A stretch of 40,000 bases of DNA, taken from Pseudomonadales bacterium (lineage in GTDB: Bacteria; Pseudomonadota; Gammaproteobacteria; Pseudomonadales; Azotimanducaceae). Under the pieces are notes generated by a model. That model was not told the origin of the DNA, ran no database searches, and worked only from the letters and a program-made list of their open reading frames with translations. Shown here piece by piece: positions 7,291 through 26,476 of the stretch (positions are counted from its first letter, which is position 1; each line of letters begins with the position of its first letter). The position numbers and the translations under genes were made by a program. The stretch is from positions 3,474,906-3,514,905 of the forward strand of contig OZ245934.1 in assembly GCA_965230005.1 (NCBI GenBank), in the 5' to 3' direction.

Positions 7291-7299
7291 GACCCGAGC

Positions 7300-10517: not shown

Positions 10518-10521
10518 GACC

Positions 10522-12262: not shown

Positions 12263-12289
12263 CGACGCATCTTCCGCACGCGAGTCATC

Positions 12290-12841: not shown

Positions 12842-12997
12842 CCCGGGAAACGCAGGATCAGCCTTCAGCCACGATGGGCGCCGCTGGGCGCCCTGGATCG
12901 CGAGGCGGGACCTTAGGCCGGGTGCAAGCGAACCGTGGCGAAGTGAGCAGCACGATTCTCATCCCCTCTCATCTCCCCTTGTGGATGTGAAGCTCGT

Positions 12998-13076
12998 GGC
13001 TAGAACCTACCAATGCCGCTGCGGTTTTAGAAGACCGAGCAACGCATACGAAGCAGTCGGCCCATGAGTCTGGCGC
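12998..13076 (-). repeat. possible strongly eroded attC remnant
   Basis: Lies directly 3' of the HIT gene. Ends ggctagaac...gtctggcgc|tca weakly echo gcctaac...gttaggcg|tca. Partial arm complementarity. Hand alignment only. Confidence 0.2.
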
Positions 13077-13445
13077 TCAGCTCCGTGAGAGTCTCTCGGC
13101 AGGATCGATGTTTCGCCCATAGGACTGACCATAGGCGCAGTGGAAGTGCAGGTGCTTCGAGTCCTGATACTCACCCAGATTCGTCAGAACCCGGCAGGCA
13201 CCATGTTCCTGCTCCACGGACGCGGCGACCTGTCTGACCACTTCCAACACCCTGCTGAGCGCGTCCACCGGATGATCCCCGAGATCGGTGAGCGATGGTA
13301 TGTGCGCCTTTGGAACAACGACGATATGCACCGGCCAGTAGGGCCGCGTGTGGTGGAAGGCGAGCACATCCTCCGTTTCGAGGACCACCTCGATCGGCGT
13401 GTTCCTGGGAATCGCCTCATCACAGTAAAAGTCGCTTCCTGACAA
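13077..13445 (-). CDS. HIT family protein (distal cassette)
   Basis: Histidine triad HLHFHCAYG. The only possible start is TTG 13445, one codon after an in-frame TAG. GGAG lies 9 nt upstream, inside the eroded attC. Confidence 0.75.
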   Translation of the reverse strand: MSGSDFYCDEAIPRNTPIEVVLETEDVLAFHHTRPYWPVHIVVVPKAHIPSLTDLGDHPVDALSRVLEVVRQVAASVEQEHGACRVLTNLGEYQDSKHLHFHCAYGQSYGRNIDPAERLSRS

Positions 13446-13446: not shown

Positions 13447-13542
13447 GGCTAGCGCTCCAAAAACCAACGATAGAGGCCGGCGGGTTGGATCGGCCGCGAG
13501 AGGGCTACCGATTCGCGCGTTTGAATCATCGCCTTGCCAGGC
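13447..13542 (-). repeat. degenerate attC site
   Basis: Exactly 96 bp. The right 16 nt catcgccttgccaggc match the family. Both cores are mutated (plus strand ggctagc / gccaggc). Abuts the GNAT stop as other attCs do. Confidence 0.55.
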
Positions 13543-13543
13543 G

Positions 13544-14038
13544 TCATAGTCGTTTGACCATATAGCGGCATAGATCTCTCGCGAGCCCGAGCCCTCCGTC
13601 CATTAAAGGATACTGGTACTCATCGAAGTATTCTTCGAGTTCAGTGTCTTCGAATCCCAGCTCCCGATAGAGAGAGTACGCCTTCGGATTCGCATGGCTT
13701 ACGCCAAGGCTGATCGCTTCAAATCCCTTCAATGCGGCCCGAGATTCCATGTTGGCAATAAGAGCGCGCCCGATGCCCTGAGACCGATAGGACTCCCTGA
13801 CTTCAAGACGATAGATCTCAGGCGCTTCCGGGAAGAGTTGCTTGGCCTGAGAGTCACGAGGGCCAAGCCATCGAACGAAGCCCCATCCAAGGATCTCCCC
13901 ACTCGCCAATGCGAGATAGAGGGAGTGCTCTTCTCGAGTTTGATCTTCGAGGTCCTGCTCGAACGTCCGCTCAACCGATGGCTTTACATACCGCTTGATG
14001 AGTTCGAGATCTGCAACCTCAGCCCGCCGAATGTCCAT
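13544..14038 (-). CDS. GNAT family N-acetyltransferase (cassette)
   Basis: Trimmed to ATG 14038, since the track ORF extends through the attC. Motif A is RSQGIGRALI. Confidence 0.85.
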   Translation of the reverse strand: MDIRRAEVADLELIKRYVKPSVERTFEQDLEDQTREEHSLYLALASGEILGWGFVRWLGPRDSQAKQLFPEAPEIYRLEVRESYRSQGIGRALIANMESRAALKGFEAISLGVSHANPKAYSLYRELGFEDTELEEYFDEYQYPLMDGGLGLARDLCRYMVKRL

Positions 14039-14046
14039 GAGGTGAC

Positions 14047-14142
14047 GCCTAACGCCGCGACAGGCGGCGCTGAAATCTGGTTGGCCAGAGCGGCAGAGAA
14101 AGGAGGACAACATCAAGCAGCCGATTGATCACCTGGTTAGGC
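14047..14142 (-). repeat. integron attC site
   Basis: 96 bp, gcctaac...gttaggc on the plus strand. About 27 hand-counted mismatches to the array consensus. Arms still complementary, with 2 extra bases on the high-coordinate arm. Confidence 0.8.
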
Positions 14143-14191
14143 GTCATTTTGTGTGTTCTCCTTAAACGTCCTCAGTGGAATTCCGAAAAGA

Positions 14192-14722
14192 ATGATCACA
14201 AGCCGTTCGACTTTTGGCCGATGCCAGTGTGGTCAGGCTCGCTTCAAGCTGAATGCACCGCCGCTCTTTACGCATGCCTGCCATTGCCACAACTGTCAAC
14301 GCAGCAGCGGAAGCGCTTTCGGACTTTCCACGATAGTACTGCGCGAAAACTTCGAGGTAACCACGGGCAGTTTGGCATCAAAATCTACCAGTCCCCGGAC
14401 TACGATCTATCGGTGTTCAGAATGCGGCACGATGATCTACTCAGAATCAACTGAGTTCCCTGCTACATACATCGTTCGAGGCGGGACCTTCGACGACCCT
14501 GGCGTGGTCGAGCCCGGAGTTCACATCTGGGTGAAGCACAAACACCCGTGGATCAAGCTGCCGAGCGGTGTTCAGCAGTTTGATGAGGAGTACAACTTCA
14601 GAGAAGTGTGGCCGACCAATACCCTCGAGCGTTTAGATGCGGCAACCAATGCGCCAAGTTCCACCGGGTTGACGCCCACCGCGGGAAAACAATCAGGTGA
14701 TTGGAGCCAGGAGCAGCGGTAA
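14192..14722 (+). CDS. GFA family protein (antisense to the array)
   Basis: ATG 14192. CQCGQARF...CHCHNCQRS...CSECGT. The stop TAA lies in ggtaacaagg. Confidence 0.8.
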   Translation: MITSRSTFGRCQCGQARFKLNAPPLFTHACHCHNCQRSSGSAFGLSTIVLRENFEVTTGSLASKSTSPRTTIYRCSECGTMIYSESTEFPATYIVRGGTFDDPGVVEPGVHIWVKHKHPWIKLPSGVQQFDEEYNFREVWPTNTLERLDAATNAPSSTGLTPTAGKQSGDWSQEQR

Positions 14723-15121
14723 CAAGGAAACACAGTAGTAAAGCGCCAGTACGGCGATGTGAAGAATTCTCGCAGAGAAAAAGCCTGGAAGGGCAATCAC
14801 GAGTGCCGAGGCTCCCACACCCCACCATGGAAGTTCGAGAGATAGCACGCCCGGAAGCTGATCGACTAGCTGAGATGCTATGAAATCGATCGCTAGAAAG
14901 GAGTATCCGAATCGCGCGCACCTGAAATAGTGTTCGCCAAGGTCGTACACCTTATTCGATGCTGCCGGCACAAACGAAGTGACTGATAGCGTTAAAAGCA
15001 TAACCGGAAGAAGCAGGACGAGGATTTTGTAGTGAAAATCAAACTCTACCGTCCGATAGCCCCAGATCCCGCCGACGTGAATAATCAGGTTAACGACCAG
15101 GGCAATCGTGATCGCCAGCAA
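14693..15121 (-). CDS. integral membrane protein, start unresolved (possible frameshift)
   Basis: 142-aa hydrophobic ORF with only a TTG start and no SD. A 28-aa ATG-initiated TM ORF (15157..15243) lies just upstream in another frame. Confidence 0.45.
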   Translation of the reverse strand: MLAITIALVVNLIIHVGGIWGYRTVEFDFHYKILVLLLPVMLLTLSVTSFVPAASNKVYDLGEHYFRCARFGYSFLAIDFIASQLVDQLPGVLSLELPWWGVGASALVIALPGFFSARILHIAVLALYYCVSLLPLLLAPIT

Positions 15122-15249
15122 AAACCAGGGGTTTTTGTACTGCTCTCTGGATTGAGTTACGGCTCCCAGAACAAAAGAACGGACGTGATCGCGATTGCAG
15201 CGACAATGCCAACTAAACCCATCAGGAATTCAAAGTGGCTCATTTAGAC

Positions 15250-15345
15250 ACCTGACGCCGCGACAAGCGGCACTTGAGTCCTGCCGACTGGAGCGACAGC
15301 GAAAAGAAACCGCGGTCAAGCGTCCGATTCATCGCCTGGTTAGGC
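15250..15345 (-). repeat. integron attC site
   Basis: 96 bp, acctgac...gttaggc. About 14 mismatches to consensus. R' core reads GTCAGGT on the minus strand. Confidence 0.8.
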
Positions 15346-15365
15346 ATCAACAGGATCAAACGCCC

Positions 15366-15412
15366 GAATGTCAGGCGGCCCCTCAAGCGCTGAAACGAAC
15401 TCGTCGAAGGCG
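15366..15412 (+). repeat. attC-derived fragment, apparently inverted
   Basis: gtcaggcggcccctcaagcgc matches the minus-strand form gtc-ggcggcc-ctcaagcgc of the family (20/22 with 2 gaps). Ends ...gaaggcgctcat versus ttaggcgtcat. Confidence 0.35.
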
Positions 15413-15516
15413 CTCATATGTCCTCCCCAGGGCAACCATTGCGAATCTGAGAACCCAATAACATACACATTTTGCTAGCCTGCCAGCGACGTGTTTCAAA
15501 CCAAGAGGGGTCTGCC

Positions 15517-15990
15517 ATGAAACCTGTTGTGAACCTTTCCGAGGTGGCTTTCGACGACGTAGAGGAAAACGGTTTTTACACCTCACGCCGCGCACTCTTC
15601 AGTGAAAGCATCGGAGCGCGGGAGCTTGGATACAACTTAACCGAACTGCCGGCAGGTAAAGCGCAATGCCCTTTTCATAACCATCGAGCAGAGGAGGAGA
15701 TGTTCCTGATCCTCGAGGGGGAGGGGGAACTCAGGTTTGGACAAGCGCGTTATCCGATACGCGCGATGGATGTCATCGCTTGCCCTCCCGGTGGCTCAGA
15801 GGTCGCCCACCAGATCATAAACACAGGCGCGACGACTCTACGCTATCTTGCAGTTTCTACCCTCGCACCGGTCGAAATGGCAGAGTACCCCGATTCCGGA
15901 AAGATCGGTGTATACGGCAGCGTTGGCGAGTCTGGCGGGACCTGGCGAGCTTCGGATAAGGTCGACTATTACGATGGCGAATCGGTCTGA
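15517..15990 (+). CDS. cupin domain protein (antisense to the array)
   Basis: ATG 15517 with AGAGGGG SD. Cupin motifs PFHNHRAEEEMFLILEGEG and IACPPGG..VAHQIIN. Confidence 0.85.
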   Translation: MKPVVNLSEVAFDDVEENGFYTSRRALFSESIGARELGYNLTELPAGKAQCPFHNHRAEEEMFLILEGEGELRFGQARYPIRAMDVIACPPGGSEVAHQIINTGATTLRYLAVSTLAPVEMAEYPDSGKIGVYGSVGESGGTWRASDKVDYYDGESV

Positions 15991-16072
15991 AAGATCGACG
16001 CGAGTGACCGTTAGTGCCTCCCGCGCCTCAACGCCGAGTTTTGGGAGCTATCCGCCGGCCAAGACCACCGAG

Positions 16073-16360
16073 CTAGTCTGGTTTTTTTCCATAGGCATCG
16101 AAGTTCTGGATGTAGTCGTCCATGTTTTCTTCGAGCATCTTTTTGTACTCATCGAGAAAATACTGGATGTACTCCTGCCGCCGCTCGCCCATCTCTGCCG
16201 CGCTGTCGGATCCTCGAGCACTCAGCCAGGCATTGAAGCGCGCCGTCGCATACATCATTGAGGCGCTGACTTTTCCTGAACCCACGTCCCCTATCTGACT
16301 GTTGGCCAGATCAATGTGCGCATCTGCGCGATCGTAGAACTTGTTATCCGCTTCGCTCAT
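16073..16360 (-). CDS. DUF3144-like protein
   Basis: 95 aa, ATG with GAGGG SD. FYDRADAHIDLAN...KVSASMMYATARFNAW resembles DUF3144. Confidence 0.65.
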   Translation of the reverse strand: MSEADNKFYDRADAHIDLANSQIGDVGSGKVSASMMYATARFNAWLSARGSDSAAEMGERRQEYIQYFLDEYKKMLEENMDDYIQNFDAYGKKPD

Positions 16361-16461
16361 TAACCCTCATCCGCCCACCTGGCACTGGTCGATCGCAGTG
16401 ATTCAGGTTTGATCGTACGCTTTCCAGAAGCTGGCCGCTCTTCCCTAAGGCATAAGGTGCC

Positions 16462-17106
16462 TCAGTTGTAGCCAAGCAGCAGCTCGAGCCGCCCTTCCTG
16501 CAGGAGCGTTGCCCGCTGGATGGTGAGCGCCGGGAAGTGTTCCGTGAGCTCCTGTTGGGTGTGCGCATGATAAGGGCCCATCGTGGCATCCGGTCGAAGC
16601 AGCAGGTGGCTGCCTTTCAGAATGCCGAACCGATAGCGCTCCTGGGCACCGCCCTGGCCGCGTTCGTTTTTCCGAGCGCCCTGATGGAGTGAGCCGAAGC
16701 CGTAGCCAAGGGTTCGGCTGTCGAAGTGCGGGGCCAGGGCGCGGCTCAGCCCTTCGAGGAGTCGCAGGTCCATGTGATGGAAGGCATCCCAGAAAAGGCA
16801 CACGTCGAAAACGAGATCGTCCGGCAGGTTCAGGTAACGGGCGAAGTATTCGGCCGCGCTGCCGGCGGTGATGTCCTCGGGCACTTCGTTCACGATGTCA
16901 CAGGAGAAGAGGTCGGCGAACTGGATGCGCGCGCTGTGCGCGGCGAAGAAGTCGACCGTGCTCTGCGAGCCACTGCCTGCGTCGAGGACGTTGAGGCGGC
17001 CCCGGGACTCGAGCTGCTCGAGCATCATGGGCAGCAGGCGGCTCTCGACGGAGCTCGTGCCTGGTGCCAGATCCTGGGGCCGTGATGAATCGCGGCCAAA
17101 CACCAA
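16462..17106 (-). CDS. class I SAM-methyltransferase-like protein
   Basis: LNVLDAGSGSQS resembles motif I. TTG/GTG starts follow immediately after the bactofilin stop. High GC. Function uncertain. Confidence 0.5.
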   Translation of the reverse strand: MVFGRDSSRPQDLAPGTSSVESRLLPMMLEQLESRGRLNVLDAGSGSQSTVDFFAAHSARIQFADLFSCDIVNEVPEDITAGSAAEYFARYLNLPDDLVFDVCLFWDAFHHMDLRLLEGLSRALAPHFDSRTLGYGFGSLHQGARKNERGQGGAQERYRFGILKGSHLLLRPDATMGPYHAHTQQELTEHFPALTIQRATLLQEGRLELLLGYN

Positions 17107-17637
17107 TCAGCTCGCGCTGCTGGTGCGCTTCTCCGTGGCCGGCTCCGCTTTGCCGCTCGGGGCACTGCTCGTGGTGCTCGCCGCTTTCGGCTTCGCTGGC
17201 GTAGCGGTCTTGCCGGCGTCCACACCCGGATCCATGTCGATAGAGCCTTTGAACTTCGCGCCGTCTTCGAGGGTCACCCGGGGCGCCACGATGTTGCCGA
17301 GGACATGGCCGGACTTGGTGATCACGACTTTCTCAGCGCCGTTGATGTCGCCGTTGACCTGGCCTTCGACTTTCACGGTCTTGGCCGTAAGGTTGGCATC
17401 TACCCGGCCCTTCTGGCCGATCGTGAGATCGTGGCCGTTCAGCGAGATGGCGCCTTCCACGGTGCCTTCGACGATCAGGTTCTCCTCGCCGCTGACTTCG
17501 CCTTTAACTTTAATGGTGGATCCAATCACGGCGGTGCTCCTCGAATCTGAAAGTTCTCGATACTGGTCTGCCCGCGGGGCATCGGTACTGCCCACAGAGG
17601 GTTCCTCAGACGGGTTGTCTCTGCGCTTCTCGAACAT
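17107..17637 (-). CDS. bactofilin family polymer-forming protein
   Basis: Trimmed to ATG 17637 with GGAGG SD. Repetitive beta-helix core (IKVKGEVSGEENLIVEGTVEGAI...VKVEGQVNGDI...GNIVAPRVTLEDGAKFKGSI). Ala/Ser/Thr/Lys/Pro-rich low-complexity C-terminal tail. Confidence 0.85.
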   Translation of the reverse strand: MFEKRRDNPSEEPSVGSTDAPRADQYRELSDSRSTAVIGSTIKVKGEVSGEENLIVEGTVEGAISLNGHDLTIGQKGRVDANLTAKTVKVEGQVNGDINGAEKVVITKSGHVLGNIVAPRVTLEDGAKFKGSIDMDPGVDAGKTATPAKPKAASTTSSAPSGKAEPATEKRTSSAS

Positions 17638-17779
17638 GCTCTCGCCTCCTGTGGCTACTGCGGGGTGCGTGAATCCCGGACTATAGGCCATCGGCGCGGT
17701 CAGGAAATGACAACTTTCTGGTACCCGGCGGGCCGGTGACCGGGCCTCCTCGCCACGGCGACCCAGTCCATGAGGCTCT

Positions 17780-18709
17780 TCAGCGGATGGCGACCGGATT
17801 GATGATCGCCTGCACGGAGCCCACGAAGCGTGGCTGACCGAGCACAAAGAGGAACTCCGTGGCGCCATCGGCGGCGAGGGCGCGGGTATCCATCACCTCC
17901 AGGATGTATACCCCGTGTTTGGCGAGGAGTTCCGCGTGCACGGGAAAGGCCAGGGTCGGGTCTTCGTGGGGGATGGCTTCGAGCGCCGCCGTGTCCGCCC
18001 CGAGGGCGACCACGCCGAGTCCTGCCAGGTATCGAGCCCCCTCGAGACCGAGCCCCGGTTGCTGCGCGATGAATCCCGCCGGATCGGCGTCAGCGGTGTC
18101 GAGCCAGCCGGTGTGGAAGAGCACCACGTCGCCTTCGCCCAGGGTCACGCCGATACGCTTTGCCGCCTCATCGATCTCCGCTCGATTGAAGGCTGTGCCC
18201 GCGGGGAGAGGGTTCTGCCCGTAGAGCCTGGTCATATCCAGGAGCACACCGCGGGTGACAATCGGCGGGATCTCATGGGTCGAGAACTTGGTGAGGCCCG
18301 CCGGGCCGGCGAACTCCGCTGCCGGGGTGCCATTGTAGTAGTGGTGGTCGATGCCCATGTGGCCCAGCCCGTCGATCTGACTGCCAACGCCCATGTAGGT
18401 CGTTAACAGGTCGTCGTAGCTCGTGGCTTTGTTTGCACCTAGCGTTGCCCCGTCGCTGGCGCCGAGCTGGAGCACGGTCATGTGATACCAGCGCGGCGGA
18501 TAGGCCGGGGTATCCGGGCCCGTGGGCACGCCGAGGGCATAGCTCTTGCCGAGCTTCACGAGCGACGCGGCGCGCAGCGCTCCTGCCTCCGACAGGTTGT
18601 TCGCCGCGCCGATGGTGTCATCGGCCCCGTACCTGGATGGGTACCAGCTTTCTTCGGCAGCGGCCGCACCGGCAAGCAGCAGTCCCAGCAGCAACGTGAA
18701 TGTCTTCAT
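17780..18709 (-). CDS. secreted cyclase family protein (kynurenine formamidase-like)
   Basis: 309 aa with signal peptide. GSQIDGLGH and VLFHTGW regions typical of the putative cyclase family. GGGGAGAG SD. Confidence 0.75.
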   Translation of the reverse strand: MKTFTLLLGLLLAGAAAAEESWYPSRYGADDTIGAANNLSEAGALRAASLVKLGKSYALGVPTGPDTPAYPPRWYHMTVLQLGASDGATLGANKATSYDDLLTTYMGVGSQIDGLGHMGIDHHYYNGTPAAEFAGPAGLTKFSTHEIPPIVTRGVLLDMTRLYGQNPLPAGTAFNRAEIDEAAKRIGVTLGEGDVVLFHTGWLDTADADPAGFIAQQPGLGLEGARYLAGLGVVALGADTAALEAIPHEDPTLAFPVHAELLAKHGVYILEVMDTRALAADGATEFLFVLGQPRFVGSVQAIINPVAIR

Positions 18710-18741
18710 GACTTCTCTCCCCTGTTTGAGTCTTTCCCGAA

Positions 18742-18841
18742 TCCGGAAGCCGCGCAGCGCGCCTTTGCCGAGCTCGACCGGTCAGGTCTCTGAGGTCTTC
18801 GCAGGAGCACGCGGCTCCATCGCACGGCTGACTTGTTTGGC
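18742..18841 (-). repeat. probable eroded attC site
   Basis: Sits 10 nt beyond the VOC stop. aagccgcgcagcgcgcctttg...cgac.gg...cgcaggagcacgcgg...cttgtttggc parallels the consensus arms. R' core lost (ttccgga). Hand alignment. Confidence 0.4.
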
Positions 18842-18850
18842 CTGCTTCAT

Positions 18851-19243
18851 CTAGTCGGCCCCCTGCGAGAAGCATAGCGTGTGACCTTCGTTATCGACCA
18901 CATAGAACTCGCGCGTACCCCAATCAGTTACGGCGGGATCTCTTACGAAACTCACCCCAGCAGATCTGCACTTCTCAGCCCAGAGTCCGACGTCTTCCAC
19001 AGAGAAAAAGAGGTGCAGGTGGTTATCTTTGCTGACGACGTCAATGGATGGATCTGGTGAATCGACGAGTTTTAAGTGGAAACGCTGACCGTCACCAACT
19101 TTGATCCCCGCATAGAAATCGCTGTATTTGAACTCGAGATCGAACCCGAGCTTCGAGACGTAGAAATGGATCGACTCATCGAGTCTGGTCGTACGGAGCT
19201 GCGGTATAAGTTCGATCGTGTTTCCTCGTGTATCTTCCGCCAA
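18851..19243 (-). CDS. VOC family protein (cassette)
   Basis: 130 aa, TTG start with GGGGGA SD 7 nt upstream. Glyoxalase-like fold sequence. Low GC. Confidence 0.8.
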   Translation of the reverse strand: MAEDTRGNTIELIPQLRTTRLDESIHFYVSKLGFDLEFKYSDFYAGIKVGDGQRFHLKLVDSPDPSIDVVSKDNHLHLFFSVEDVGLWAEKCRSAGVSFVRDPAVTDWGTREFYVVDNEGHTLCFSQGAD

Positions 19244-19262
19244 CGATGTATCCCCCGATGGC

Positions 19263-19358
19263 GCCTAGCGCCGCGATAAGCGGCACTTGAGGGCGGCTGA
19301 ATGAAGCGACAGCGAAAGGAGGCAACGGTCAAGCATCCGTTTCATCGCCTTGTTCGGC
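19263..19358 (-). repeat. integron attC site
   Basis: 96 bp, gcctagc...gttcggc. 13 hand-counted mismatches to consensus. Confidence 0.85.
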
Positions 19359-19817
19359 GTCATCACCGCCGCGATTGCGATACGCGAATACCATCAGCTC
19401 AACAAAGAAAATCAGTGTAAGTGAAAGGCCACTACCAGTCCCATCCGACATCGCACTCGCGATTTCTTCCGCGTCGTCGGCACGACCAACAAGTATGAGA
19501 AAAAACATGGAGGCCAATGCTACTAACAGGATGCATACAACACTGATTACAACAACGAAGTACCACGGTTTCCGCTCGCTCAGCGCTGTGGGAATCAATG
19601 GGTCCCTCGTGCGAAGTGAGCTGACATTTCGCCACAGGAGATAACCCACTACGGCAAATCCGCCCAGCGTACTAGTCAAAGACGTTATCCAGTTAGAGTG
19701 TTCAACGGCTTCTGGTCCGAACCGCCAGACTAAGGATAGATAGATCCCATGAGTTACTAGGATCCGAACTACCTCAGCCAAGGTAAAGGCCCGATAAGCT
19801 GGTGACAGCAAAGACAT
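19329..19817 (-). CDS. small multi-TM membrane protein (cassette)
   Basis: 162 aa with ATG start. 4 hydrophobic segments and an acidic tail. The last 10 codons run into the attC. Confidence 0.65.
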   Translation of the reverse strand: MSLLSPAYRAFTLAEVVRILVTHGIYLSLVWRFGPEAVEHSNWITSLTSTLGGFAVVGYLLWRNVSSLRTRDPLIPTALSERKPWYFVVVISVVCILLVALASMFFLILVGRADDAEEIASAMSDGTGSGLSLTLIFFVELMVFAYRNRGGDDAEQGDETDA

Positions 19818-19820
19818 GGC

Positions 19821-19916
19821 GCCTAACGCCGCGATAAGCGGCGCTTGAGGGCAGTCAACTGGAGCGGTAGCGAAAGGAGGTCGCGGTCAAGCGCCCGATT
19901 CATCGCCTTGTTAAGC
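19821..19916 (-). repeat. integron attC site
   Basis: 96 bp, gcctaac...gttaagc. Identical to the site at 23667. Confidence 0.9.
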
Positions 19917-20117
19917 GACGCTGCGACTGAACTGCTCTACAACAACGTCAGGGAGGGTCGTACATTGCTTCGCATGCTCAATAGTCATGCTCACGAGAAT
20001 TCCATCCTTGTCGAGATCGACATAGATGTTCTCGTTGATCTCACGAGTCTCGGCTACTTCATGATCCGAGAACTCTAGGAGCGCAGTATCAGTATCTTCA
20101 AAGTACTTTACTTTCAT
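19911..20117 (-). CDS. DUF2283-like antitoxin candidate (copy 1)
   Basis: 68 aa. MKVKYFEDTDTALLEFSD...VDLDKDGILVSMTIEHA fits the DUF2283 pattern. ATGA overlap with the upstream gene. Stop TAA lies in R''. Confidence 0.8.
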   Translation of the reverse strand: MKVKYFEDTDTALLEFSDHEVAETREINENIYVDLDKDGILVSMTIEHAKQCTTLPDVVVEQFSRSVA

Positions 20118-20347
20118 GGTTTGAATCCTCGATCGAAGAAGGCGTTGTGCACAGTCTCGCCATCTTCCAGGAGAATGACTCTAAGGTACTTACCTTCTGA
20201 TTCGATGTATACCCAACGCCTGATCCTGCCATCCGTTTGAGTTACCTCTCTGACCGGGTTCTCAATAGCTGCGAGGATCCACTCATCAGCGATCATTGCG
20301 CGGTCCGGGCGCAATCTGATGTTTCGAAAGTATGCAGTGGTCTTCAA
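20114..20347 (-). CDS. DUF4258-like toxin candidate (copy 1)
   Basis: 77 aa, TTG start. ...DGRIRRWVYIESEGKYLRVILLEDGETVHNAFFDR. Paired with the DUF2283 gene in one cassette. Confidence 0.7.
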   Translation of the reverse strand: MKTTAYFRNIRLRPDRAMIADEWILAAIENPVREVTQTDGRIRRWVYIESEGKYLRVILLEDGETVHNAFFDRGFKP

Positions 20348-20360
20348 TCTTGGTTGTGTC

Positions 20361-20459
20361 GCTTAACGCCGCGATAAGCGGCGCTTGAGGGCCGTCGACT
20401 GGAGCGGTAGCGAAAGAAGCTGGCGGCGGTCAAGCGTCCGATTCATCGCCTTGTTAGGT
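20361..20459 (-). repeat. integron attC site
   Basis: 99 bp (3-nt insertion), gcttaac...gttaggt. Confidence 0.9.
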
Positions 20460-20521
20460 GTCATTCATTCCCCTAAATCTTGAAGCCAGTAGCACTATTG
20501 CGATCATCTACCTACTTTCGA

Positions 20522-20947
20522 TCAACCCCTAAAGGGCAGGTACTTCCTGGAAGCGAGCGAATAGCCGATGAGTCCAGCTAGCAAAATCGCTAGTACGTTC
20601 AAAGCGGCTCCGTACGATGTTCCTATAAGTATTTCCAGATGTGTGGGCGGAATACGGAGAGGCTCCCCAATTCGATAGTGAATGTGGACAATATAGGCAT
20701 GTAGAGCAAGATACAGACTAAGGAAGATAGCGGTGAATCGGTGAGTACCAATTAGCGAACCAAAAACAGCCCCTAGAAAGAGCCCCGCCGCGGACGATGG
20801 AACGACGAACTGACTACCAATCTCTAAGGAGCCGTCCAGATCGAGTTGCCTGGATAGCTGATCTGCGCCGGTTGAAACGCCGAATCCGACCAAAACGCCA
20901 AGCCCATTCCTCATATACCCATTTAGCTGAAGGAAGCCCTTGGACAT
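20522..20947 (-). CDS. small multi-TM membrane protein (cassette)
   Basis: 141 aa with ATG start and 4 hydrophobic segments. No known domain. Confidence 0.65.
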   Translation of the reverse strand: MSKGFLQLNGYMRNGLGVLVGFGVSTGADQLSRQLDLDGSLEIGSQFVVPSSAAGLFLGAVFGSLIGTHRFTAIFLSLYLALHAYIVHIHYRIGEPLRIPPTHLEILIGTSYGAALNVLAILLAGLIGYSLASRKYLPFRG

Positions 20948-20950
20948 GAC

Positions 20951-21046
20951 GCCTTACGCCGCGATAAGCGGCGCTTGAGGGCGGCCGACTGGAGCGGCAG
21001 CGTAAGGAGGTCGCGGTCAAGCGTCCGATTCATCGCCTTGTTAGGC
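20951..21046 (-). repeat. integron attC site
   Basis: 96 bp, gccttac...gttaggc. About 6 mismatches to consensus. Confidence 0.9.
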
Positions 21047-21706
21047 GTCATCATTCGTGCCCATATCCGCAAGGGGGTCTTCCGAGTCTCGTCGAATCGG
21101 TACGCGTCTATTTCGCTTCCTGAACTGCCGAGCATACTCTCGCCGTTGTTTGGTGACTTCGTACAGCACTATTCCAGATGTTGTCCCGAGATTGAGGCTC
21201 TCGATCATTCCGAACATAGGAATACTAATGCAGAGATCTGCACGCGCTACTGCAACGTCGCTTATCCCGCGAGACTCGTTTCCGAACCAGACAGCAAGCT
21301 TCGTATAAGTGGTGTAGTCGACTTCGTCCAACGTAGCGTTTTGCATTCCCTTGATATGCGGGGAGGTCACTATCGACGTAAATCGATTGGTCTCCAGATG
21401 AGAGAGACAGGATTCAGTACTATCGAATCGTTTGACGAAACTCCACTTCACAGCCGATACAGAGGATTTCGAAAGCGAGCTACGCTCACGCATATCCTGC
21501 CAGTCGTCCGGCAGAGCGTTCCTTGGATCGACCACATAGGCTTTCTCAACGCCAAGCGCGTTAACGTTCCGGATTACGGTACCGATGTTCCGTATATCTT
21601 TGGGGTCCTCGATGACTGCTATCAGATTCTTGCAGCGATATTCCTTAATCTCGTCAGCACGAAGGCGGGCAGAAGACTTAGATTTACTAGGCGCTTTTTC
21701 TTCCAT
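21041..21706 (-). CDS. SpoU/TrmH family RNA 2'-O-methyltransferase (cassette)
   Basis: 221 aa. SPOUT motifs NIGTVIRNVNALGV, WFGNESRGIS and ESLNLGTTSGIVLYE. Basic C-terminal tail. Stop TAA lies in R''. Confidence 0.85.
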   Translation of the reverse strand: MEEKAPSKSKSSARLRADEIKEYRCKNLIAVIEDPKDIRNIGTVIRNVNALGVEKAYVVDPRNALPDDWQDMRERSSLSKSSVSAVKWSFVKRFDSTESCLSHLETNRFTSIVTSPHIKGMQNATLDEVDYTTYTKLAVWFGNESRGISDVAVARADLCISIPMFGMIESLNLGTTSGIVLYEVTKQRREYARQFRKRNRRVPIRRDSEDPLADMGTNDDA

Positions 21707-21747
21707 GATTGGATACTACTAGTTACCTGGAGTTGGTTCGGGATGAC

Positions 21748-21843
21748 GCCTAACGCCGCGATAAGCGGCGCTTGAGGGCCACCGACTGGAGCAGCAGCGA
21801 AAGGAGGCGGCGGTCAAGCGTCCGATTCATCGCCTTGTTAGGC
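21748..21843 (-). repeat. integron attC site
   Basis: 96 bp, gcctaac...gttaggc. About 3 mismatches. Confidence 0.9.
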
Positions 21844-21844
21844 G

Positions 21845-22207
21845 TCATCTTCTACTCCTATCTGAACTCTCCACGAATTCCTGAGTTGGCTTATCAGGAT
21901 ACCCTCTTACGACGAGTCGGTTGGTATAGGAAAGCACCGGCAGCACCACGAGGAGCGTTCCAGTTACCGCTACAGCTAGAGCGATGCTCCAATGAAAGAG
22001 GCCGTCCAGAGCCCAAGCAATGGCTCCAATCAGAGTCGCAGCGAGAGCGTACACCAGTGACTCAGAAAAGCTCTTCGCACAGCCATACCGGCATCCACAT
22101 TTAGCGCATGTTAAAACTTCATCCACATACCCAACACCCGAGTAGTAATCTTTCGGCACAGGCTCAGAGCAGCTCGGACACTCAAGATTTCGCTTGAAGA
22201 TGGTCAT
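21845..22207 (-). CDS. Zn-ribbon plus 2-TM membrane protein (cassette)
   Basis: Trimmed to ATG 22207. CPSC...CAKCGC followed by two hydrophobic helices. 120 aa. Confidence 0.65.
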   Translation of the reverse strand: MTIFKRNLECPSCSEPVPKDYYSGVGYVDEVLTCAKCGCRYGCAKSFSESLVYALAATLIGAIAWALDGLFHWSIALAVAVTGTLLVVLPVLSYTNRLVVRGYPDKPTQEFVESSDRSRR

Positions 22208-22221
22208 CGTCTGGGGATGAC

Positions 22222-22317
22222 GCCTAACGCCGCGATAAGCGGCGCTTGAGGGCTGCTGACTGGAGCGGCAGCGAAAGGAAGCGGCGGTCAAGCGTCCGAT
22301 TCATCGCCTTGTTAGGC
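22222..22317 (-). repeat. integron attC site
   Basis: 96 bp, gcctaac...gttaggc. About 4 mismatches. Confidence 0.9.
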
Positions 22318-22318
22318 G

Positions 22319-22948
22319 TCATCGTCTGACACTCTCTACGTCAGGAACTAGTAGCCTCTGGATTTCCCATCTTCCTGATTTTTCTCTTCTACGCATCTCA
22401 ACGGCGTCATGAAACTCTTCACATGATTGCTCTGCTCTAACATAGCGCGCCTCCGCGTGAGCAACCTCAAGGTTGCTTATCATGTCATCGGCATCAGCTT
22501 CTGGTAAAAGCTCGGCTATCCTACGAACGAAAGCCACCCCCCAAGCGCGGCAGTTTTCGGAGGCAGCCTCGCAGTCTTCTTGCTCGATAGAGATCCCACC
22601 GCTAAGAAAGCGCACTGCAATGATACGGTCAGGCAATCCCGATCGAGAGAGACTAAGTCGGAGAGAGATCGCGTTCCCACTCACAACTCGATACCGAGAT
22701 TCAAAGTCGGTACCGATTTCAGGAGTGAGCAACCACCGTGAGATCGCGTTACCGCCACAGAACGCTACAAGGGTCTTAGGAAATTCGGGAATGCTATCAA
22801 CGCGGTCGGCAGACCTGTTGTCCTCGGCTATGTGGGGTCGGCCAGCTTTAACCCATACACCTTCAAGTACTTGGTGTTGCCCATAGCTCACACAACACCA
22901 GGAACCTAGAAGAAGAAACAACATTCGAGACCATGTTCCGGAGTACAT
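22319..22948 (-). CDS. secreted protein of unknown function (cassette)
   Basis: Trimmed to ATG 22948. Signal-like N-terminus (MLFLLLGSWCCVSYG). 209 aa, several Cys. Confidence 0.6.
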   Translation of the reverse strand: MYSGTWSRMLFLLLGSWCCVSYGQHQVLEGVWVKAGRPHIAEDNRSADRVDSIPEFPKTLVAFCGGNAISRWLLTPEIGTDFESRYRVVSGNAISLRLSLSRSGLPDRIIAVRFLSGGISIEQEDCEAASENCRAWGVAFVRRIAELLPEADADDMISNLEVAHAEARYVRAEQSCEEFHDAVEMRRREKSGRWEIQRLLVPDVESVRR

Positions 22949-22959
22949 GTTGCTGAGTC

Positions 22960-23055
22960 GCCTAACGCCGCGATAAGCGGCGCTTGAATCTGGCCGACTG
23001 GAGCGGTAGCGAAAGGAGGACAGAATCAAGCGTCCGATTCATCGCCTTGTTAGGC
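22960..23055 (-). repeat. integron attC site
   Basis: 96 bp. 11 differences, all in the central stem and mutually compensatory. Confidence 0.9.
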
Positions 23056-23652
23056 GTCACCTGGCTCGGCTTCCCTGTGATTTGAACCGCGGTCATCAAG
23101 GATTCGTTTCACCTCCGCAGGAAGCGAGTCCCAATCGATGTATCCAAATTCCGGGCCCTTTTCGTCCAATCGAACGACTCCATCAACTTCGACATCGAGG
23201 CTGTAAAGTATCCAGCCAGTCAAACCGAGGAAATCTCCGCGAGGCCCTGGAGGCCCGTAGATTCGCCGCGTATCCGGGTGTCGGTTGTTGTAGTCAGATG
23301 CTCGTTGTAACGCGGTGATCCGATCACACCACGGCGGCAAATCGAAGGAGAACTCTCCATGTGAATGGGCAGCGTCGTTTCTGATACGTCTTACTAAGTG
23401 CAAATCGCGATGCAGATGTCGTGATATCAGGCCCAGCTGATATGCCGCATCTATCTTTGCCGAGAACGTACCCAGCGGTGCGTCGGTCCTGGATAGAATG
23501 TCGCGCTCTCTGTTTGTTGGAGGGAGAATGAAAGCCTCAATCTGCCTGCGCAGAGCTTCCTCCAACATAGCGGCAGCAACTATGGCGGCGCTTCGATCCT
23601 CAATATCGATCAATCCAAGAAAGGCTTCTGGCGACAGAGTTGGGTCAGGCAT
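23050..23652 (-). CDS. MltR (mannitol-repressor)-like / DUF4145-like helical protein (cassette)
   Basis: 200 aa. IVAAAMLEEAL...LGTFSAKIDAAYQLGLISRHLHRDLHLVRRIRNDAAH resembles the MltR-like domain. The C-terminal half is unassigned. Confidence 0.6.
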   Translation of the reverse strand: MPDPTLSPEAFLGLIDIEDRSAAIVAAAMLEEALRRQIEAFILPPTNRERDILSRTDAPLGTFSAKIDAAYQLGLISRHLHRDLHLVRRIRNDAAHSHGEFSFDLPPWCDRITALQRASDYNNRHPDTRRIYGPPGPRGDFLGLTGWILYSLDVEVDGVVRLDEKGPEFGYIDWDSLPAEVKRILDDRGSNHREAEPGDA

Positions 23653-23666
23653 TACGTTGCAGTGAC

Positions 23667-23762
23667 GCCTAACGCCGCGATAAGCGGCGCTTGAGGGCAG
23701 TCAACTGGAGCGGTAGCGAAAGGAGGTCGCGGTCAAGCGCCCGATTCATCGCCTTGTTAAGC
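23667..23762 (-). repeat. integron attC site
   Basis: 96 bp. Identical to the site at 19821. Confidence 0.9.
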
Positions 23763-23963
23763 GACGCTGCGACTGAACTGCTCTACAACAACGTCAGGGA
23801 GGGTCGTACATTGCTTCGCATGCTCAATAGTCATGCTCACGAGAATTCCATCCTTGTCGAGATCGACATAGATGTTCTCGTTGATCTCACGAGTCTCGGC
23901 TACTTCATGATCCGAGAACTCTAGGAGCGCAGTATCAGTATCTTCAAAGTACTTTACTTTCAT
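23757..23963 (-). CDS. DUF2283-like antitoxin candidate (copy 2)
   Basis: Nucleotide-identical to 19911..20117. Confidence 0.8.
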   Translation of the reverse strand: MKVKYFEDTDTALLEFSDHEVAETREINENIYVDLDKDGILVSMTIEHAKQCTTLPDVVVEQFSRSVA

Positions 23964-24193
23964 GGTTTGAATCCTCGATCGAAGAAGGCGTTGTGCACAG
24001 TCTCGCCATCTTCCAGGAGAATGACTCTAAGGTACTTACCTTCTGATTCGATGTATACCCAACGCCTGATCCTGCCATCCGTTTGAGTTACCTCTCTGAC
24101 CGGGTTCTCAATAGCTGCGAGGATCCACTCATCAGCGATCATTGCGCGGTCGGGGCGCAATCTGGTGTGTCGAAAGTATGCGGTGGTCTTCAA
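23960..24193 (-). CDS. DUF4258-like toxin candidate (copy 2)
   Basis: Differs from copy 1 at 4 nt in the first 14 codons (N9H, I10T, two synonymous). Confidence 0.7.
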   Translation of the reverse strand: MKTTAYFRHTRLRPDRAMIADEWILAAIENPVREVTQTDGRIRRWVYIESEGKYLRVILLEDGETVHNAFFDRGFKP

Positions 24194-24206
24194 TCTTGGT
24201 TGTGTC

Positions 24207-24302
24207 GCCTAACGCCGCGATAAGCGGCGCTTGAGAGCCGCCGACTGGAGCGGTAGCGAAAGGAGGCGGCGGTCAAGCGTCCGATTCATCGCCTTGTTAG
24301 GC
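24207..24302 (-). repeat. integron attC site
   Basis: 96 bp. 1 mismatch to consensus. Confidence 0.9.
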
Positions 24303-24689
24303 GACGCCCGGTCTGCTGGACAAAAGGACTATCGCGAGAAGGATAACGAGTGGGAACATTACTCCAATGCCAGCACATCGCCATAGAGAGTAGTACACGC
24401 CACCATCTTCTTCGAATGTTGCGTACACACTACCGAAGAGTTTTCCGGCTAACGCGAAGCTTATCATCGCACTAATGAGGCTAAAGACTATTCCCTGTGA
24501 AGGGAATTCTGGGATCGGGTATGTGGCGGCGAACAGAAGTAACGTGCCAAAAACGATGGCGCCCGCAGCGATTCGCCCGGACGGTTTCATATCTAGAGAT
24601 GAGTAGTTTAAGTACGCAAGCACCGCGAAAGCCAAGCCTGATCCTAGTAAGGTCGCAAGGAAAACTCCTTTTTGACTGTAGAGTTGCAT
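24297..24689 (-). CDS. small multi-TM membrane protein (cassette)
   Basis: 130 aa with ATG start and 4 hydrophobic segments. Stop TAA lies in R''. Confidence 0.65.
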   Translation of the reverse strand: MQLYSQKGVFLATLLGSGLAFAVLAYLNYSSLDMKPSGRIAAGAIVFGTLLLFAATYPIPEFPSQGIVFSLISAMISFALAGKLFGSVYATFEEDGGVYYSLWRCAGIGVMFPLVILLAIVLLSSRPGVA

Positions 24690-24728
24690 AGGCCTACTAA
24701 TATCCTCGGAGAGCGCTGATCGTGTCGC

Positions 24729-24857
24729 CTAACGCCACCGGCATCCACATTTAGCGCATGTTAAAACTTCATCCACATACCCAACACCCGAGTAGTAATC
24801 TTTCGGCACAGGCTCAGAGCAGCTCGGACACTCAAGATTTCGCTTGAAGATGGTCAT
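24729..24857 (-). pseudogene. truncated copy of the Zn-ribbon/TM cassette gene
   Basis: 24737..24871 is identical to 22087..22221. Reading frame ends after 42 codons at the TAG of an orphan GTTAGGC core (24727..24733). Confidence 0.75.
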
Positions 24858-24871
24858 CGTCTGGGGATGAC

Positions 24872-24967
24872 GCCTAACGCCGCGATAAGCGGCGCTTGAG
24901 GGCCGCCGACTGGAGCGGCAGCGAAAGGAGGCGGCGGTCAAGCGTCCGATTCATCGCCTTGTTAGGC
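24872..24967 (-). repeat. integron attC site (first in array)
   Basis: 96 bp. 1 mismatch to consensus. Confidence 0.9.
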
Positions 24968-25000
24968 GTCACTTCGGATGCGCACCTGGGAAACAGCCTT

Positions 25001-25288
25001 TTAGTCATCACCGCTGATCTGCCAATTTATATCAAGGCCTTCGTCGCCATCGTTTCCGCCAGACTCTCGATACTTCTGGTATCCCCATTCATCCTTCGAT
25101 CTATTCTCAGCTTTGTCTCGAGCTTCTTTCTCTTTCTGGTGTTTGCTACGCAGAAACTTTTTGGCATCTTCCTCAGAGAGACGATCCGACTCAGGAATCG
25201 AGTTCCCACAGTACATGCACTTTTGAAACTCTGGGTTTCGAATTGGTTGCCCGCACTTTAAGCACTTAGGTTTCTCACTCTGAGTCAC
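25001..25288 (-). CDS. Zn-ribbon protein with charged tail (first cassette)
   Basis: CLKCG...CMYCG followed by a Lys/Glu-rich region. GTG 25288 is the first start inside the cassette. The track ORF to 25414 (TTG) crosses the attI crossover point. Confidence 0.5.
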   Translation of the reverse strand: MTQSEKPKCLKCGQPIRNPEFQKCMYCGNSIPESDRLSEEDAKKFLRSKHQKEKEARDKAENRSKDEWGYQKYRESGGNDGDEGLDINWQISGDD

Positions 25289-25306
25289 AGGAGATCTCTC
25301 AATGAC

Positions 25307-25420
25307 GCCTAACAGCCAAATAGCCGACAGCGAGTCGTGATGAAACACGACGCACTGTCGCAATAACACGAAAGGTCTCGGCGGGCGTTCACCGCTTTCC
25401 TGTATCTCACCCAAAACTCC
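25307..25420 (-). other. attI recombination site (core GTTAGGC at 25307..25313; outer limit approximate)
   Basis: The same 7-bp core as attC R' sits between intI and the first cassette. The sequence intI-ward of it is unrelated to attC. The extent toward intI is inferred by analogy. Confidence 0.55.
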
Positions 25421-25455
25421 CTAGGCTCGAACCGACAGAAATCTCCTACACACTG

Positions 25456-25483
25456 ATCATACGCTTCCCCGCGATAGGGTCAT
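25456..25483 (-). promoter_or_regulatory. candidate cassette promoter (Pc-like)
   Basis: Minus strand ATGACC-16 nt-TATGAT pointing into the array. Sequence match only. Confidence 0.2.
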
Positions 25484-25519
25484 CGAGCGGGGGCATACTT
25501 TCGCTTTTCAGGCGATATC

Positions 25520-26476
25520 GTGCCAAAGCTTCTTCAGCGAGTGCGAGAAACGGTCCGCATTCGCAACTACTCGATTCGCACTGAGCAGGCTTACGTGTAC
25601 TGGATTCGGCAGTTCATCAGGCACTATGAACTGCAGCACCCTGAGTCAATGAGCGGAGAGCAGGTTGCGGGCTTCTTGAGCCATCTGGCGCTGGAGCGTG
25701 AGGTTGCGCCTAACACTCAACGGGTGGCGCTGAATGCGCTGGTCTTCCTCTACACCCAGGTGCTCGGGCGCCATGAGTTCGAAGTGCCAGGCTATCGCTT
25801 TGCCGAGAAGCCGCGGAAGTTGCCCGTTGTGCTGTCGCGACCGGAGTTGGAAACACTGTTCGCTGCGATGAATGGGCCGTCCCTCCTCTGTGCGAAGCTC
25901 ATGTACGGCTCCGGGCTCCGAGTCATGGAGGTGGTTCGCTTGCGGGTTCACGACGTGGATGTCGAGCGCCTGAGCCTGATGGTGCGTGATGGAAAGGGCT
26001 CGCGGCAGCGCATCACTACGCTCAGTAAGGCAGTCCTTCCGGATCTTTTCCGGCAGCTTTCACTGACTCGACATTACTTCGAGGACGATAGGCAGGCGAA
26101 AGACTGGGCAGGCGTGTTCCTGCCTCATGCCCTCGATCGCAAGTATCCGGCCGCATCGACGGAGTGGGGTTGGCAGTATCTCTTTGGCGCATCCCGCCGA
26201 AGTGTCGACCCTCGCGGCGGCGGACTCCGGCGGCACCACCTTCACGAGCGCACTGTGCAGCGCGCGTTCACTCGCGCAATGCGCGCTTCGGGAATCACTA
26301 AGCCGGCCTCCTGTCATTCCCTGCGCCACTCCTTCGCCACCCATCTGCTCGAGCGCGGCGCAGACATCCGCACGGTTCAGGAGCAGCTCGGGCACTCGGA
26401 TGTGCGGACCACGGAAATCTATACGCACGTGATCAAGCGCGGCGGCCATGGCGTAGTGAGCCCGCTCGATAGCTGA
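25520..26476 (+). CDS. intI: integron integrase IntI (tyrosine recombinase)
   Basis: 318 aa, GTG start. IRTEQAYVYWIRQFI, GSGLRVMEV, GKGSRQR, HSLRHSFATHLL and LGHSDVRTTEIYTHV. Carries the IntI-specific insertion ALDRKYPAASTEWGWQYLF...RRHHLHERTVQRAF. Confidence 0.95.
   Translation: MPKLLQRVRETVRIRNYSIRTEQAYVYWIRQFIRHYELQHPESMSGEQVAGFLSHLALEREVAPNTQRVALNALVFLYTQVLGRHEFEVPGYRFAEKPRKLPVVLSRPELETLFAAMNGPSLLCAKLMYGSGLRVMEVVRLRVHDVDVERLSLMVRDGKGSRQRITTLSKAVLPDLFRQLSLTRHYFEDDRQAKDWAGVFLPHALDRKYPAASTEWGWQYLFGASRRSVDPRGGGLRRHHLHERTVQRAFTRAMRASGITKPASCHSLRHSFATHLLERGADIRTVQEQLGHSDVRTTEIYTHVIKRGGHGVVSPLDS

Follow-up and report, generated by a model that had tools for sequence, protein, structure and literature searches.

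What kind of element occupies positions 13,447 to 26,476 of a 40,000-nt stretch of DNA (hereafter the window) from an uncultured, marine-type Pseudomonadales (Azotimanducaceae-like) gammaproteobacterium? An earlier note, made from the letters alone, had read this region as a complete chromosomal integron of the sedentary type, built from the integrase gene intI, an attI site and an array of gene cassettes bounded by attC sites. We found intI, attI and 13 attC sites almost to the base where that note had placed them, and we are highly confident that the region is a complete sedentary-type chromosomal integron. The integron itself is an ordinary representative of a well-known type, and the greater interest lies in its architecture: fresh sites, sites with putatively dead cores, eroded sites and then a long attC-less run of genes of host composition stand in one window. 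The window has 61% GC overall and 63-66% GC in its outer parts, with a trough of 51-54% over 13.5-16 kb and 19-26 kb. The mean GC of array genes is 0.505, compared with 0.63-0.66 in the host flank, in line with the AT-richer interval described before. For comparison, we fetched 80 loci around IntI relatives. The closest of them, L001, is a contig of a metagenome-assembled genome (MAG) whose IntI is 86% identical to that of the window; the IntI proteins of L002-L006 are 67-71% identical to it, and three of these five loci are complete chromosomes labelled Candidatus Azotimanducaceae. Two further regions, L085 (a second contig of the MAG that holds L001) and L086 (a tail region in the L006 genome), were compared with the left part of the window.

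The earlier note had asked for a check against an integron-specific integrase model. One such model, TIGR02249 ("integron integrase"), matches IntI along its full length, with 420.6 bits against a cut-off of 265 and coverage of profile positions 1-314 of 315. Pfam assigns Phage_integrase and SAM_4 to the same protein. Models for XerC, XerD and XerA all score below their cut-offs on IntI, as does the IntI1-type model NF011946 (310.9 bits, cut-off 435), and the best plasmid-borne IntI is 51% identical to the window protein. Residues 5-317 align without a gap to residues 6-318 of the Vibrio integrase VchIntIA in structure 2A3V (E 5.7e-90). All catalytic residues are present (R134, K159, H266, R269, H292 and Y301), and the protein keeps an intact integron-specific segment at about residues 205-245, with no gap relative to 2A3V through residues 190-245. 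The aligned stretch takes in ALDRKYPAASTEWGWQYLF...RRHH, the hallmark separating integron integrases from other tyrosine recombinases. The open reading frame (ORF) 25520-26476 and the catalytic and insertion motifs quoted from it in the earlier note are all present. The composition of intI is close to that of the host, with a GC content at third codon positions (GC3) of 0.72.

A direct-repeat search returned a single family of 13 copies at the starts that had been listed before, 96 nt long in 12 of the 13; the exception is the copy at 20361, with 99 nt. The core GTTAGGC occurs 19 times in the window where 2.8 occurrences are expected, a count that none of 100 shuffles reaches. Nearly all ORFs between the repeats are coded on the minus strand, and read on that strand the consensus starts with GCCTAAC (RYYYAAC, the R'' box) and ends with GTTAGGC (GTTRRRY, the R' box). 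The two halves form a hairpin in which 89.8% of cells are paired, a share that drops to 22-43% if the partners are shifted by 1-3 columns, and compensatory changes are found at seven pairs, mostly in the inner stem. When the + strand is folded as DNA, the ten proximal copies except 19263 show an 8-bp R stem, a 2x2 internal loop and a long stem; two single bases, C and T, bulge out of the 3' (R''/L'') arm of this stem at a distance of seven positions, and there is one A·G mismatch. Since the extra bases sit on the R''/L'' arm, the + strand is identified as the recombinogenic bottom strand, which agrees with the location of intI to the right and of the ORFs on the minus strand. The folded strand of the well-preserved copies thus has the R boxes, the internal loop beside the R box and, on the R''/L'' arm, the two unpaired bases from which the earlier note had read the polarity. 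Unpaired features of attC sites have a role in strand choice (PMC8946536). The GC skew of the flanks averages about -0.01, too weak to place the attC bottom strands on the leading-strand template.

Preservation of the sites differs along the array. Mean pairwise identity is 89.5% among the proximal ten and 81.8% among all 13, and identity to attC 1 is 86% for the copy at 15250, 73% for 14047 and 63.5% for 13447. The single hairpin is not the minimum-energy fold of these three distal copies. The copy at 13447, already called eroded in the earlier note, is heavily eroded, with both R boxes lost, and is probably dead. A strict R-box scan is passed by 8 of the 13 sites. As a side observation, the palindrome reaches past the R boxes, as ATGACGCCTAAC...GTTAGGCGTCAT(G), in the flanks of all attC sites (for example, 24868-24971).

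We scored the sites with two covariance models, R1, trained on the 13 window repeats, and R2, trained on 35 attC sites in ten distant loci, beside unrelated intI genes from other phyla. Run over the 40 kb with filters off, R1 scores the 13 sites at 65-122 bits on the + strand and at 44 bits or less on the - strand, and finds nothing above about 16 bits outside them. R2, an approximation of the attC covariance-model test suggested in the earlier note, picks up 12 of the 13 repeats, all but 13447, with + strand scores of 30-81 bits (37 bits or less on the opposite strand). Further attC sites in the window were found neither by R2 with filters off nor by a strict RYYYAAC...GTTRRRY scan of both strands. 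Rfam at gathering thresholds gave no matches in the window, which is uninformative either way because attC is no RNA family. Across the 80 loci, R1 detects arrays in L002, L003, L005 and L006, which lie upstream of intI and are oriented relative to it as in the window, and gives weaker matches in integrons of distant lineages such as Capsulimonadaceae, a betaproteobacterium and Verrucomicrobiota. The outer arms of the R2 consensus (GCCTAACGCCGCG.TAAGCGGCG...CGTCCG.TTCA.CGCCTTGTTAGGC) are nearly the same in these three groups, both bulge positions included, indicating that the attC type is widely shared. This match of arms and bulges across distant phyla fits a wide circulation of cassettes with this attC type. 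The arrays of L002, L003, L005 and L006 mix a 96-nt attC type (R1 90-118 bits) with a 99-nt type that has a different loop (R1 47-59 bits); the window array holds the 96-nt subfamily only.

The GTTAGGC proposed as the attI core at 25313..25307 on the minus strand is present, 206 bp upstream of intI. Homology between the window and L001 spans intI to 25302, just past this core, and then breaks; beyond the core, the first cassette of L001 is a different one, with an attC site of the same family at its end. Next to the core, toward intI, a 40-nt flank (GCCTAACAGCCAAAT...GTCGTG on the + strand) is kept in all six relatives (L001-L006). The homology break at the core, together with the conserved flank, is direct comparative evidence that the attI core is the insertion point. 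The spacer between intI and attI also holds a candidate cassette promoter (Pc), which matches the consensus, is the sole sigma-70-like match in 25200-25800 (0.2 expected) and may drive the array. A TGATCA motif inside it is kept in most relatives, and CTGATCAT, at window positions 25456-25470, is exact in L001, L002, L005 and L006, has one mismatch in L003 and is not found in L004. The window and the five relatives that keep CTGATCAT in the spacer have no gammaproteobacterial LexA box; control of this family of integrons may lie with another regulator.

On the other side of intI, window positions 28478-39036 are syntenic with the DNA directly downstream of intI in L002-L006. The right-flank genes encode an amidase, a phosphodiesterase, 5-formyltetrahydrofolate cyclo-ligase, a major facilitator superfamily (MFS) transporter, an OmpA-family protein and pyruvate dehydrogenase (PDH) E1, and L006 shares one left-side gene too. 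The comparison across related genomes called for in the earlier note thus finds intI at the same position in five relatives and an entirely different cassette content: array DNA of the 80 loci, 264 kb in all, gave no homologue of any attC-bounded cassette ORF of the window. Among the cassette ORFs and the flank genes no transposase or resistance family was found. Together with the IntI1-type model below its cut-off and plasmid-borne IntI proteins of at most 51% identity, these results uphold the view of a sedentary rather than a clinical or mobile integron.

In the proposed mechanism, IntI, a tyrosine recombinase, would bind an attC hairpin folded from the bottom strand, here the + strand, and recombine it with double-stranded attI, at core 25313..25307, or with a second attC. 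Circular cassettes would go in beside intI, oriented to be read from the putative promoter in the intI-attI spacer, and could be excised again. That only one strand serves as substrate would be due to the two bulges of the R''/L'' arm together with the small internal loop beside the R box, and the orientation of the cassette would be fixed in this way.

Table 1 Features of the integron and its left neighbourhood, with coordinates in the window
Feature	Coordinates	Strand	Remarks
intI	25520..26476	+	318 aa, GTG start, integron integrase
candidate Pc	25456..25483	-	ATGACC-16 nt-TATGAT, directed into array; consensus match
attI	25307..25370	-	core GTTAGGC at 25313..25307 and conserved flank GCCTAACAGCCAAAT...GTCGTG (+ strand)
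proximal array	19269..25312	-	11 units (435 to 558 bp in the order listed in the text), each with a short minus-strand ORF
attC 1	24872..24967	+ (bottom strand)	R' GTTAGGC; R1 122, R2 81 bits; fold -30.9 kcal/mol
bare R' core GTTAGGC	24727..24733	-	end of 145-bp unit, last nucleotides of an attC
attC 2	24207..24302	+	R1 121, R2 81 bits
attC 3	23667..23762	+	R1 109, R2 63 bits
attC 4	22960..23055	+	R1 116, R2 80.5 bits; inner stem differs by compensatory changes
attC 5	22222..22317	+	R1 119.7, R2 78.7 bits
attC 6	21748..21843	+	R1 116.5, R2 77.9 bits
attC 7	20951..21046	+	R' GTAAGGC (triplet GTA); R1 115, R2 71 bits
attC 8	20361..20459	+	99 nt, 3-nt loop insertion; R1 105, R2 72 bits
attC 9	19821..19916	+	identical to attC 3, within duplicated cassette
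attC 10	19263..19358	+	R' GCTAGGC; upstream ORF extends 30 nt into site; R1 93, R2 46 bits
attC-less interval	15256..19268	-	4013 bp, between attC 19263 and attC 15250
glyoxalase	18851-19243	-	Pfam; cassette-like composition
cyclase	17780-18709	-	Pfam; host composition
bactofilin	17107-17640	-	Pfam; host composition
214-aa partner protein	16462-17106	-	bactofilin neighbour; host composition
DUF3144	16073-16360	-	Pfam; cassette-like composition
cupin	15472-15990	+ (reversed)	Pfam; cassette-like composition
distal array	13453..15255	-	two units, 1203 and 600 bp; membrane protein, reversed GFA-family gene, GNAT acetyltransferase
attC 11	15250..15345	+	R' GTCAGGT; R1 88.5, R2 42.6 bits
attC 12	14047..14142	+	L arms eroded, both R boxes intact; R1 77, R2 30.5 bits
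attC 13	13447..13542	+	R boxes lost (GCCTGGC, GCTAGCC); probably dead; R1 65 bits, none by R2
tail	68..13445	-	at least 27 consecutive small genes, attC-less; runs off left window edge

We measured the array by cutting at the G|TT of each core, which yields 14 units of 435, 145, 520, 540, 707, 738, 474, 797, 590, 540, 558, 4013, 1203 and 600 bp. The spacing of 0.45-0.7 kb given earlier for the proximal part has to be widened to 435-797 bp, apart from the 145-bp truncated unit, which is real. Among the proximal products are a zinc-ribbon protein, membrane proteins, a DUF4145/MtlR-like protein, a SpoU methylase and a two-gene DUF2283 module that occurs twice; across the whole array the families are SpoU methylase, DUF4145/MtlR-like, DUF2283, glyoxalase, GNAT, GFA, cupin and DUF3144, and no family was identified for the other products. 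NCBIfam gave two sub-threshold hints only for the cassette proteins of unknown function. One cassette ORF without a homologue in the comparison arrays, 22319-22948, has a GC3 of 0.47. Cassette ORFs start 6-45 nt past the core. Two of them begin at the ATG of GTTAGGCGYCATG, 6 nt past the core, with the AGG of the core at the position of a ribosome-binding site, and several stop at a TGA or TAA inside GATGACGCCTAAC, giving C-termini such as -DDA. Unlike all other cassette ORFs, two genes in the array lie on the + strand, namely a GFA-family gene (14153-14722), which overlaps the end of the minus-strand membrane-protein ORF by 30 nt, and the cupin gene (15472-15990).

Two duplications were found within the array. 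Units 4 and 10 are the same 540-bp cassette (23673-24212 and 19827-20366) in direct orientation, 3846 bp apart, encoding a 77-aa protein and a DUF2283 protein in a toxin-antitoxin-like architecture; the copies differ at five positions, all within 60 nt of the cassette 5' end. The 145-bp unit 2 (24877->24733) is identical over its first 141 nt to the start of unit 7 (22227->21754; compared 22083-22227) and is joined there to a bare GGCGTTAGGC; it is a copy of cassette 22227->21754 that has lost an internal part by deletion. The 540-bp duplicate and the truncated duplicate unit are evidence for recent activity or rearrangement. The two 540-bp copies are also a ready deletion substrate for homologous recombination.

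The 4013-bp interval between the two groups of sites is not a cassette. This was missed in the earlier note; R1, R2 and the R-box scan find no attC within 15256-19268, and its core consists of genes of host GC. The GC3 of the bactofilin, partner and cyclase genes is 0.76-0.81, compared with 0.38-0.66 in cassette genes and 0.81 in the host histidine kinase gene. The bactofilin gene and that of its 214-aa partner are conserved neighbours in relatives, in non-integron contexts, and lie 2.76 Mb from the integron in the L006 genome. In L001 (1636-3656), the same pair, 87% identical in nucleotides, is on the opposite side of intI, between intI and the histidine kinase, in a segment of about 2 kb with TCAGTTG, a 7-bp direct repeat that includes GTT, on either side; intI directly abuts the kinase in both the window and L004. 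The differing positions of the bactofilin pair indicate that host genes have moved around this integron at least once in the clade. Candidate attC remnants picked out by eye after the stop codons of the glyoxalase gene (~18830) and the 214-aa gene (~16440) were at chance level under stricter scoring, shuffles and host-gene controls.

Some observations weigh against a complete and functional sedentary integron. The R' triplet is not GTT at 4 of the 13 sites (GCT at 13447, GTC at 15250, GCT at 19263 and GTA at 20951), and both sites that border the 4-kb interval (19263 and 15250) are among them. Because of the established G|TT crossover rule, these four sites would be poor or dead substrates, frozen in place, and the nine with a canonical GTT are presumably still usable. 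The bulged bases of the textbook VchIntIA-VCR (Vibrio cholerae repeat) structure are T and G, and those of the window are C and T. The R2 model is incompletely independent because R1 had picked its training sites, although the training sequences still come from other integrons. No LexA box (CTGT-N8-ACAG) is present at 0 mismatches in the window or at one mismatch or fewer upstream of intI in the window or in L001-L006, and absence of a LexA box is associated with inactive integrases (PMC8946536). Finally, Cury et al. used more than 19 attC sites to call an integron sedentary when its within-species frequency is unknown (PMC4889954), and 13 were detected here. Since 13 sites are too few on size alone, the sedentary call rests on the conservation of the locus and the homogeneity of the attC sites.

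Could the integron be complete in structure and yet retired, with IntI no longer expressed or active and the array a relic that changes by deletion, duplication and point mutation only? The lack of a LexA box or other recognisable regulation, the four mutated crossover triplets, the three eroded distal sites, a truncated unit made by plain deletion and host DNA within the array would all suit such a history. We consider it improbable, since the IntI ORF is full-length with all catalytic residues, the proximal attC sites are 92-98% identical to each other, the first cassette differs from that of L001 exactly at the attI core, and no cassette is common to any relative. Taken together, near-identical proximal sites, an intact IntI, a differing first cassette and unshared cassettes point to insertion at attI since the species split, and IntI is probably still active. 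A reading of the repeats as unrelated palindromes of the REP (repetitive extragenic palindromic) or BIME (bacterial interspersed mosaic element) kind beside a Xer-like recombinase is extremely unlikely. They are GC-rich, imperfect and intergenic, as that reading would have it, but they are confined to the 12 kb upstream of intI, with none elsewhere in the 40 kb, share one polarity and have RYYYAAC and GTTRRRY ends; R1 finds arrays beside other intI genes, and the recombinase is recognised by the integron-specific model.

The extent and the mobility of the element can be questioned as well. A rearrangement that brought in host genes may have split the block into two elements, one a complete integron (19263-26476), the other a cluster of attC sites lacking an integron integrase (CALIN; 13447-15345). 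The 3.9 kb free of attC sites between the two groups, with a gene pair of host GC found elsewhere in relatives, and the dead triplets GCT and GTC at both bordering sites favour this, and such splits have been described by Cury et al. (PMC4889954). Both groups, however, have the same strand, polarity and attC family, the gap of 3917 bp is just within the default 4-kb clustering distance of IntegronFinder, and low-GC cassette-like genes (glyoxalase, DUF3144, cupin) lie on both sides of the host segment. We regard two elements as doubtful, and the choice between one and two is a question of bookkeeping more than of biology. A mobile integron, or a piece of a recently acquired transposon, island or integrative and conjugative element (ICE), is a very unlikely identity for the block. 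The array GC below that of the host would be expected of such an element, but intI occupies the same chromosomal locus in five genomes with IntI 67-71% identical and has near-host composition, no transposase or conjugation family was found, IntI scores below the cut-off of the IntI1-type model, and the nearest plasmid-borne IntI is 51% identical to it.

The Vibrio cholerae superintegron resembles this integron in its integrase, which aligns end to end with the window protein, in the layout of divergent intI, attI and array, in homogeneous lineage-specific attC sites and cassettes of mostly unknown function, in its chromosomal site with vertical inheritance, and in having a duplicated two-gene module of toxin-antitoxin-like architecture. 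It differs in scale, with ~179 cassettes (PMC11023631) against 13 attC sites in the window, and in the length of its attC sites (about 120-130 nt, compared with 96 nt). The window also lacks a LexA box, has C and T as bulged bases, combines a high-GC host with low-GC cassettes, and has a decayed distal end with embedded host genes. The mobile integrons of classes 1-5 have the same recombination chemistry and site logic (attI, attC, G/TT crossover), whereas the window IntI is ~51% identical to plasmid-borne IntI and below the NF011946 cut-off, its surroundings lack a Tn402/tni, qacE-delta or sul1 context and resistance cassettes, and its chromosomal site is fixed. On their own, the three distal window sites (13447-15345) would fit the definition of a CALIN (Cury et al. 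2016), but they are co-oriented with the intI-linked array and, lying within 4 kb of it, belong to that array by the default IntegronFinder rule. With this integron, uncultured Azotimanducaceae-like Pseudomonadales join the lineages in which chromosomal integrons pass down vertically, and ~20 cassette genes are added, mostly without known function, which have catalogue value and are no surprise.

The ilvD-linked integrons of Xanthomonas are similar in their ancestral acquisition at one locus, vertical descent of intI, lineage-specific decaying arrays and occasional genes without a recognisable attC that are cassettes elsewhere (PMC12444791). Unlike the mostly truncated Xanthomonas intI, that of the window is intact, and its locus is beside the amidase-to-PDH-E1 genes, not ilvD. 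The window also has an attC-less stretch of at least 13 kb, compared with two genes reported there; these two genes, downstream of ilvD in Xanthomonas cucurbitae, are the nearest published precedent we found (PMC12444791).

This stretch makes up the left flank. The earlier note had taken both flanks for housekeeping genes; on the left we found instead at least 27 co-oriented small genes of cassette-typical families. All plausible genes there are read from the minus strand and are 100-330 codons long, many of them with a 4-nt overlap (ATGA or GTGA) with the following gene. Their families are HIT (two genes), GNAT (two, or three with the L085 orthologue at 1209-1511), GFA (four), SnoaL-like, MAPEG, AAA_28, AAA_18, DUF1801 (two), YjbR, GGACT, glyoxalase and GST. 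With attC identity dropping stepwise toward the tail, the locus has an apparent age structure that runs from identical or near-identical attC sites near attI through eroded attC sites distally to attC-less co-oriented small genes. We give about even weight to the reading that the array grades at 13447 into a tail of at least 13 kb of former cassettes, which would have shed their attC sites, become packed into overlapping units resembling operons and drifted in GC to the level of the host.

The tail is syntenic with L085 (1875-16184) at 73-80% nucleotide identity, and the gene that comes after the last attC sites in L085 is orthologous to the window's GNAT gene at 12290-12841. Between the two tails, single genes are present in one and absent from the other in four cases, and at one point three genes have been replaced. 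Homologues of the tail genes 6730-7290 and 9558-10061, which only the window has, are attC-bounded cassettes in L002, L003 and L006. In L086 (5100-21107), at least 29 co-oriented small genes lie beyond the integrase, and attC scores fall with distance. L086 also has attC-arm fragments, 25-35 nt of the 5' arm, at 8123-8238 and 12803-12847, reached by 0 of 1000 and 1 of 1000 shuffles, respectively. They sit right after gene stops, with the next gene starting immediately, and the fragment at 12803-12847 directly follows a YjbR gene 72% identical in nucleotides to window 5016-5294; these fragments appear to be snapshots of attC sites under deletion. Three genes common to the window and L086 tails have kept their orientation and are reversed in order. 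Gene GC rises with distance from attI, with a Spearman rho of 0.89 for all window genes, 0.65 (p = 0.0015) for the tail alone and 0.67 for L086.

Two results count against former cassettes: no attC trace in the window's own tail survives both the shuffle and the host-gene controls, and most of the GC change comes in one step, at 13.4 kb, and not along a gradient. An adjacent host island could account for the tail instead. Candidate attC remnants seen by eye at several tail junctions looked suggestive in a first test and were indistinguishable from chance under stricter scoring, shuffles and host-gene controls; the one in the HIT-GNAT gap (12842-13076; 33 of 1000 shuffles) is borderline. If the tail does consist of former cassettes, the locus would be a stratified record of cassettes becoming fixed chromosomal genes, on which domestication could be studied directly, and site-based tools such as IntegronFinder would understate the integron-derived share of genomes.

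Minor observations were made along the tail. R'-like cores (GGTAGGC, GTAAGGC or GTGAGGC) overlap stop codons at the junctions 7291-7300, 10110-10116 and 7770-7775, a post hoc observation without a valid null model. L085 has an exact GTTAGGC at 7394-7400, at a junction where the window has an extra gene; this, too, was noticed post hoc. The 212-aa protein encoded at 3411-4049 matches no Pfam family and has more than 990 homologues of 57-70% identity in very diverse taxa, including a planctomycete; the L006 version is annotated as a GNAT-domain fusion. This patchy spread, resembling that of horizontally transferred genes, fits a once-mobile gene.

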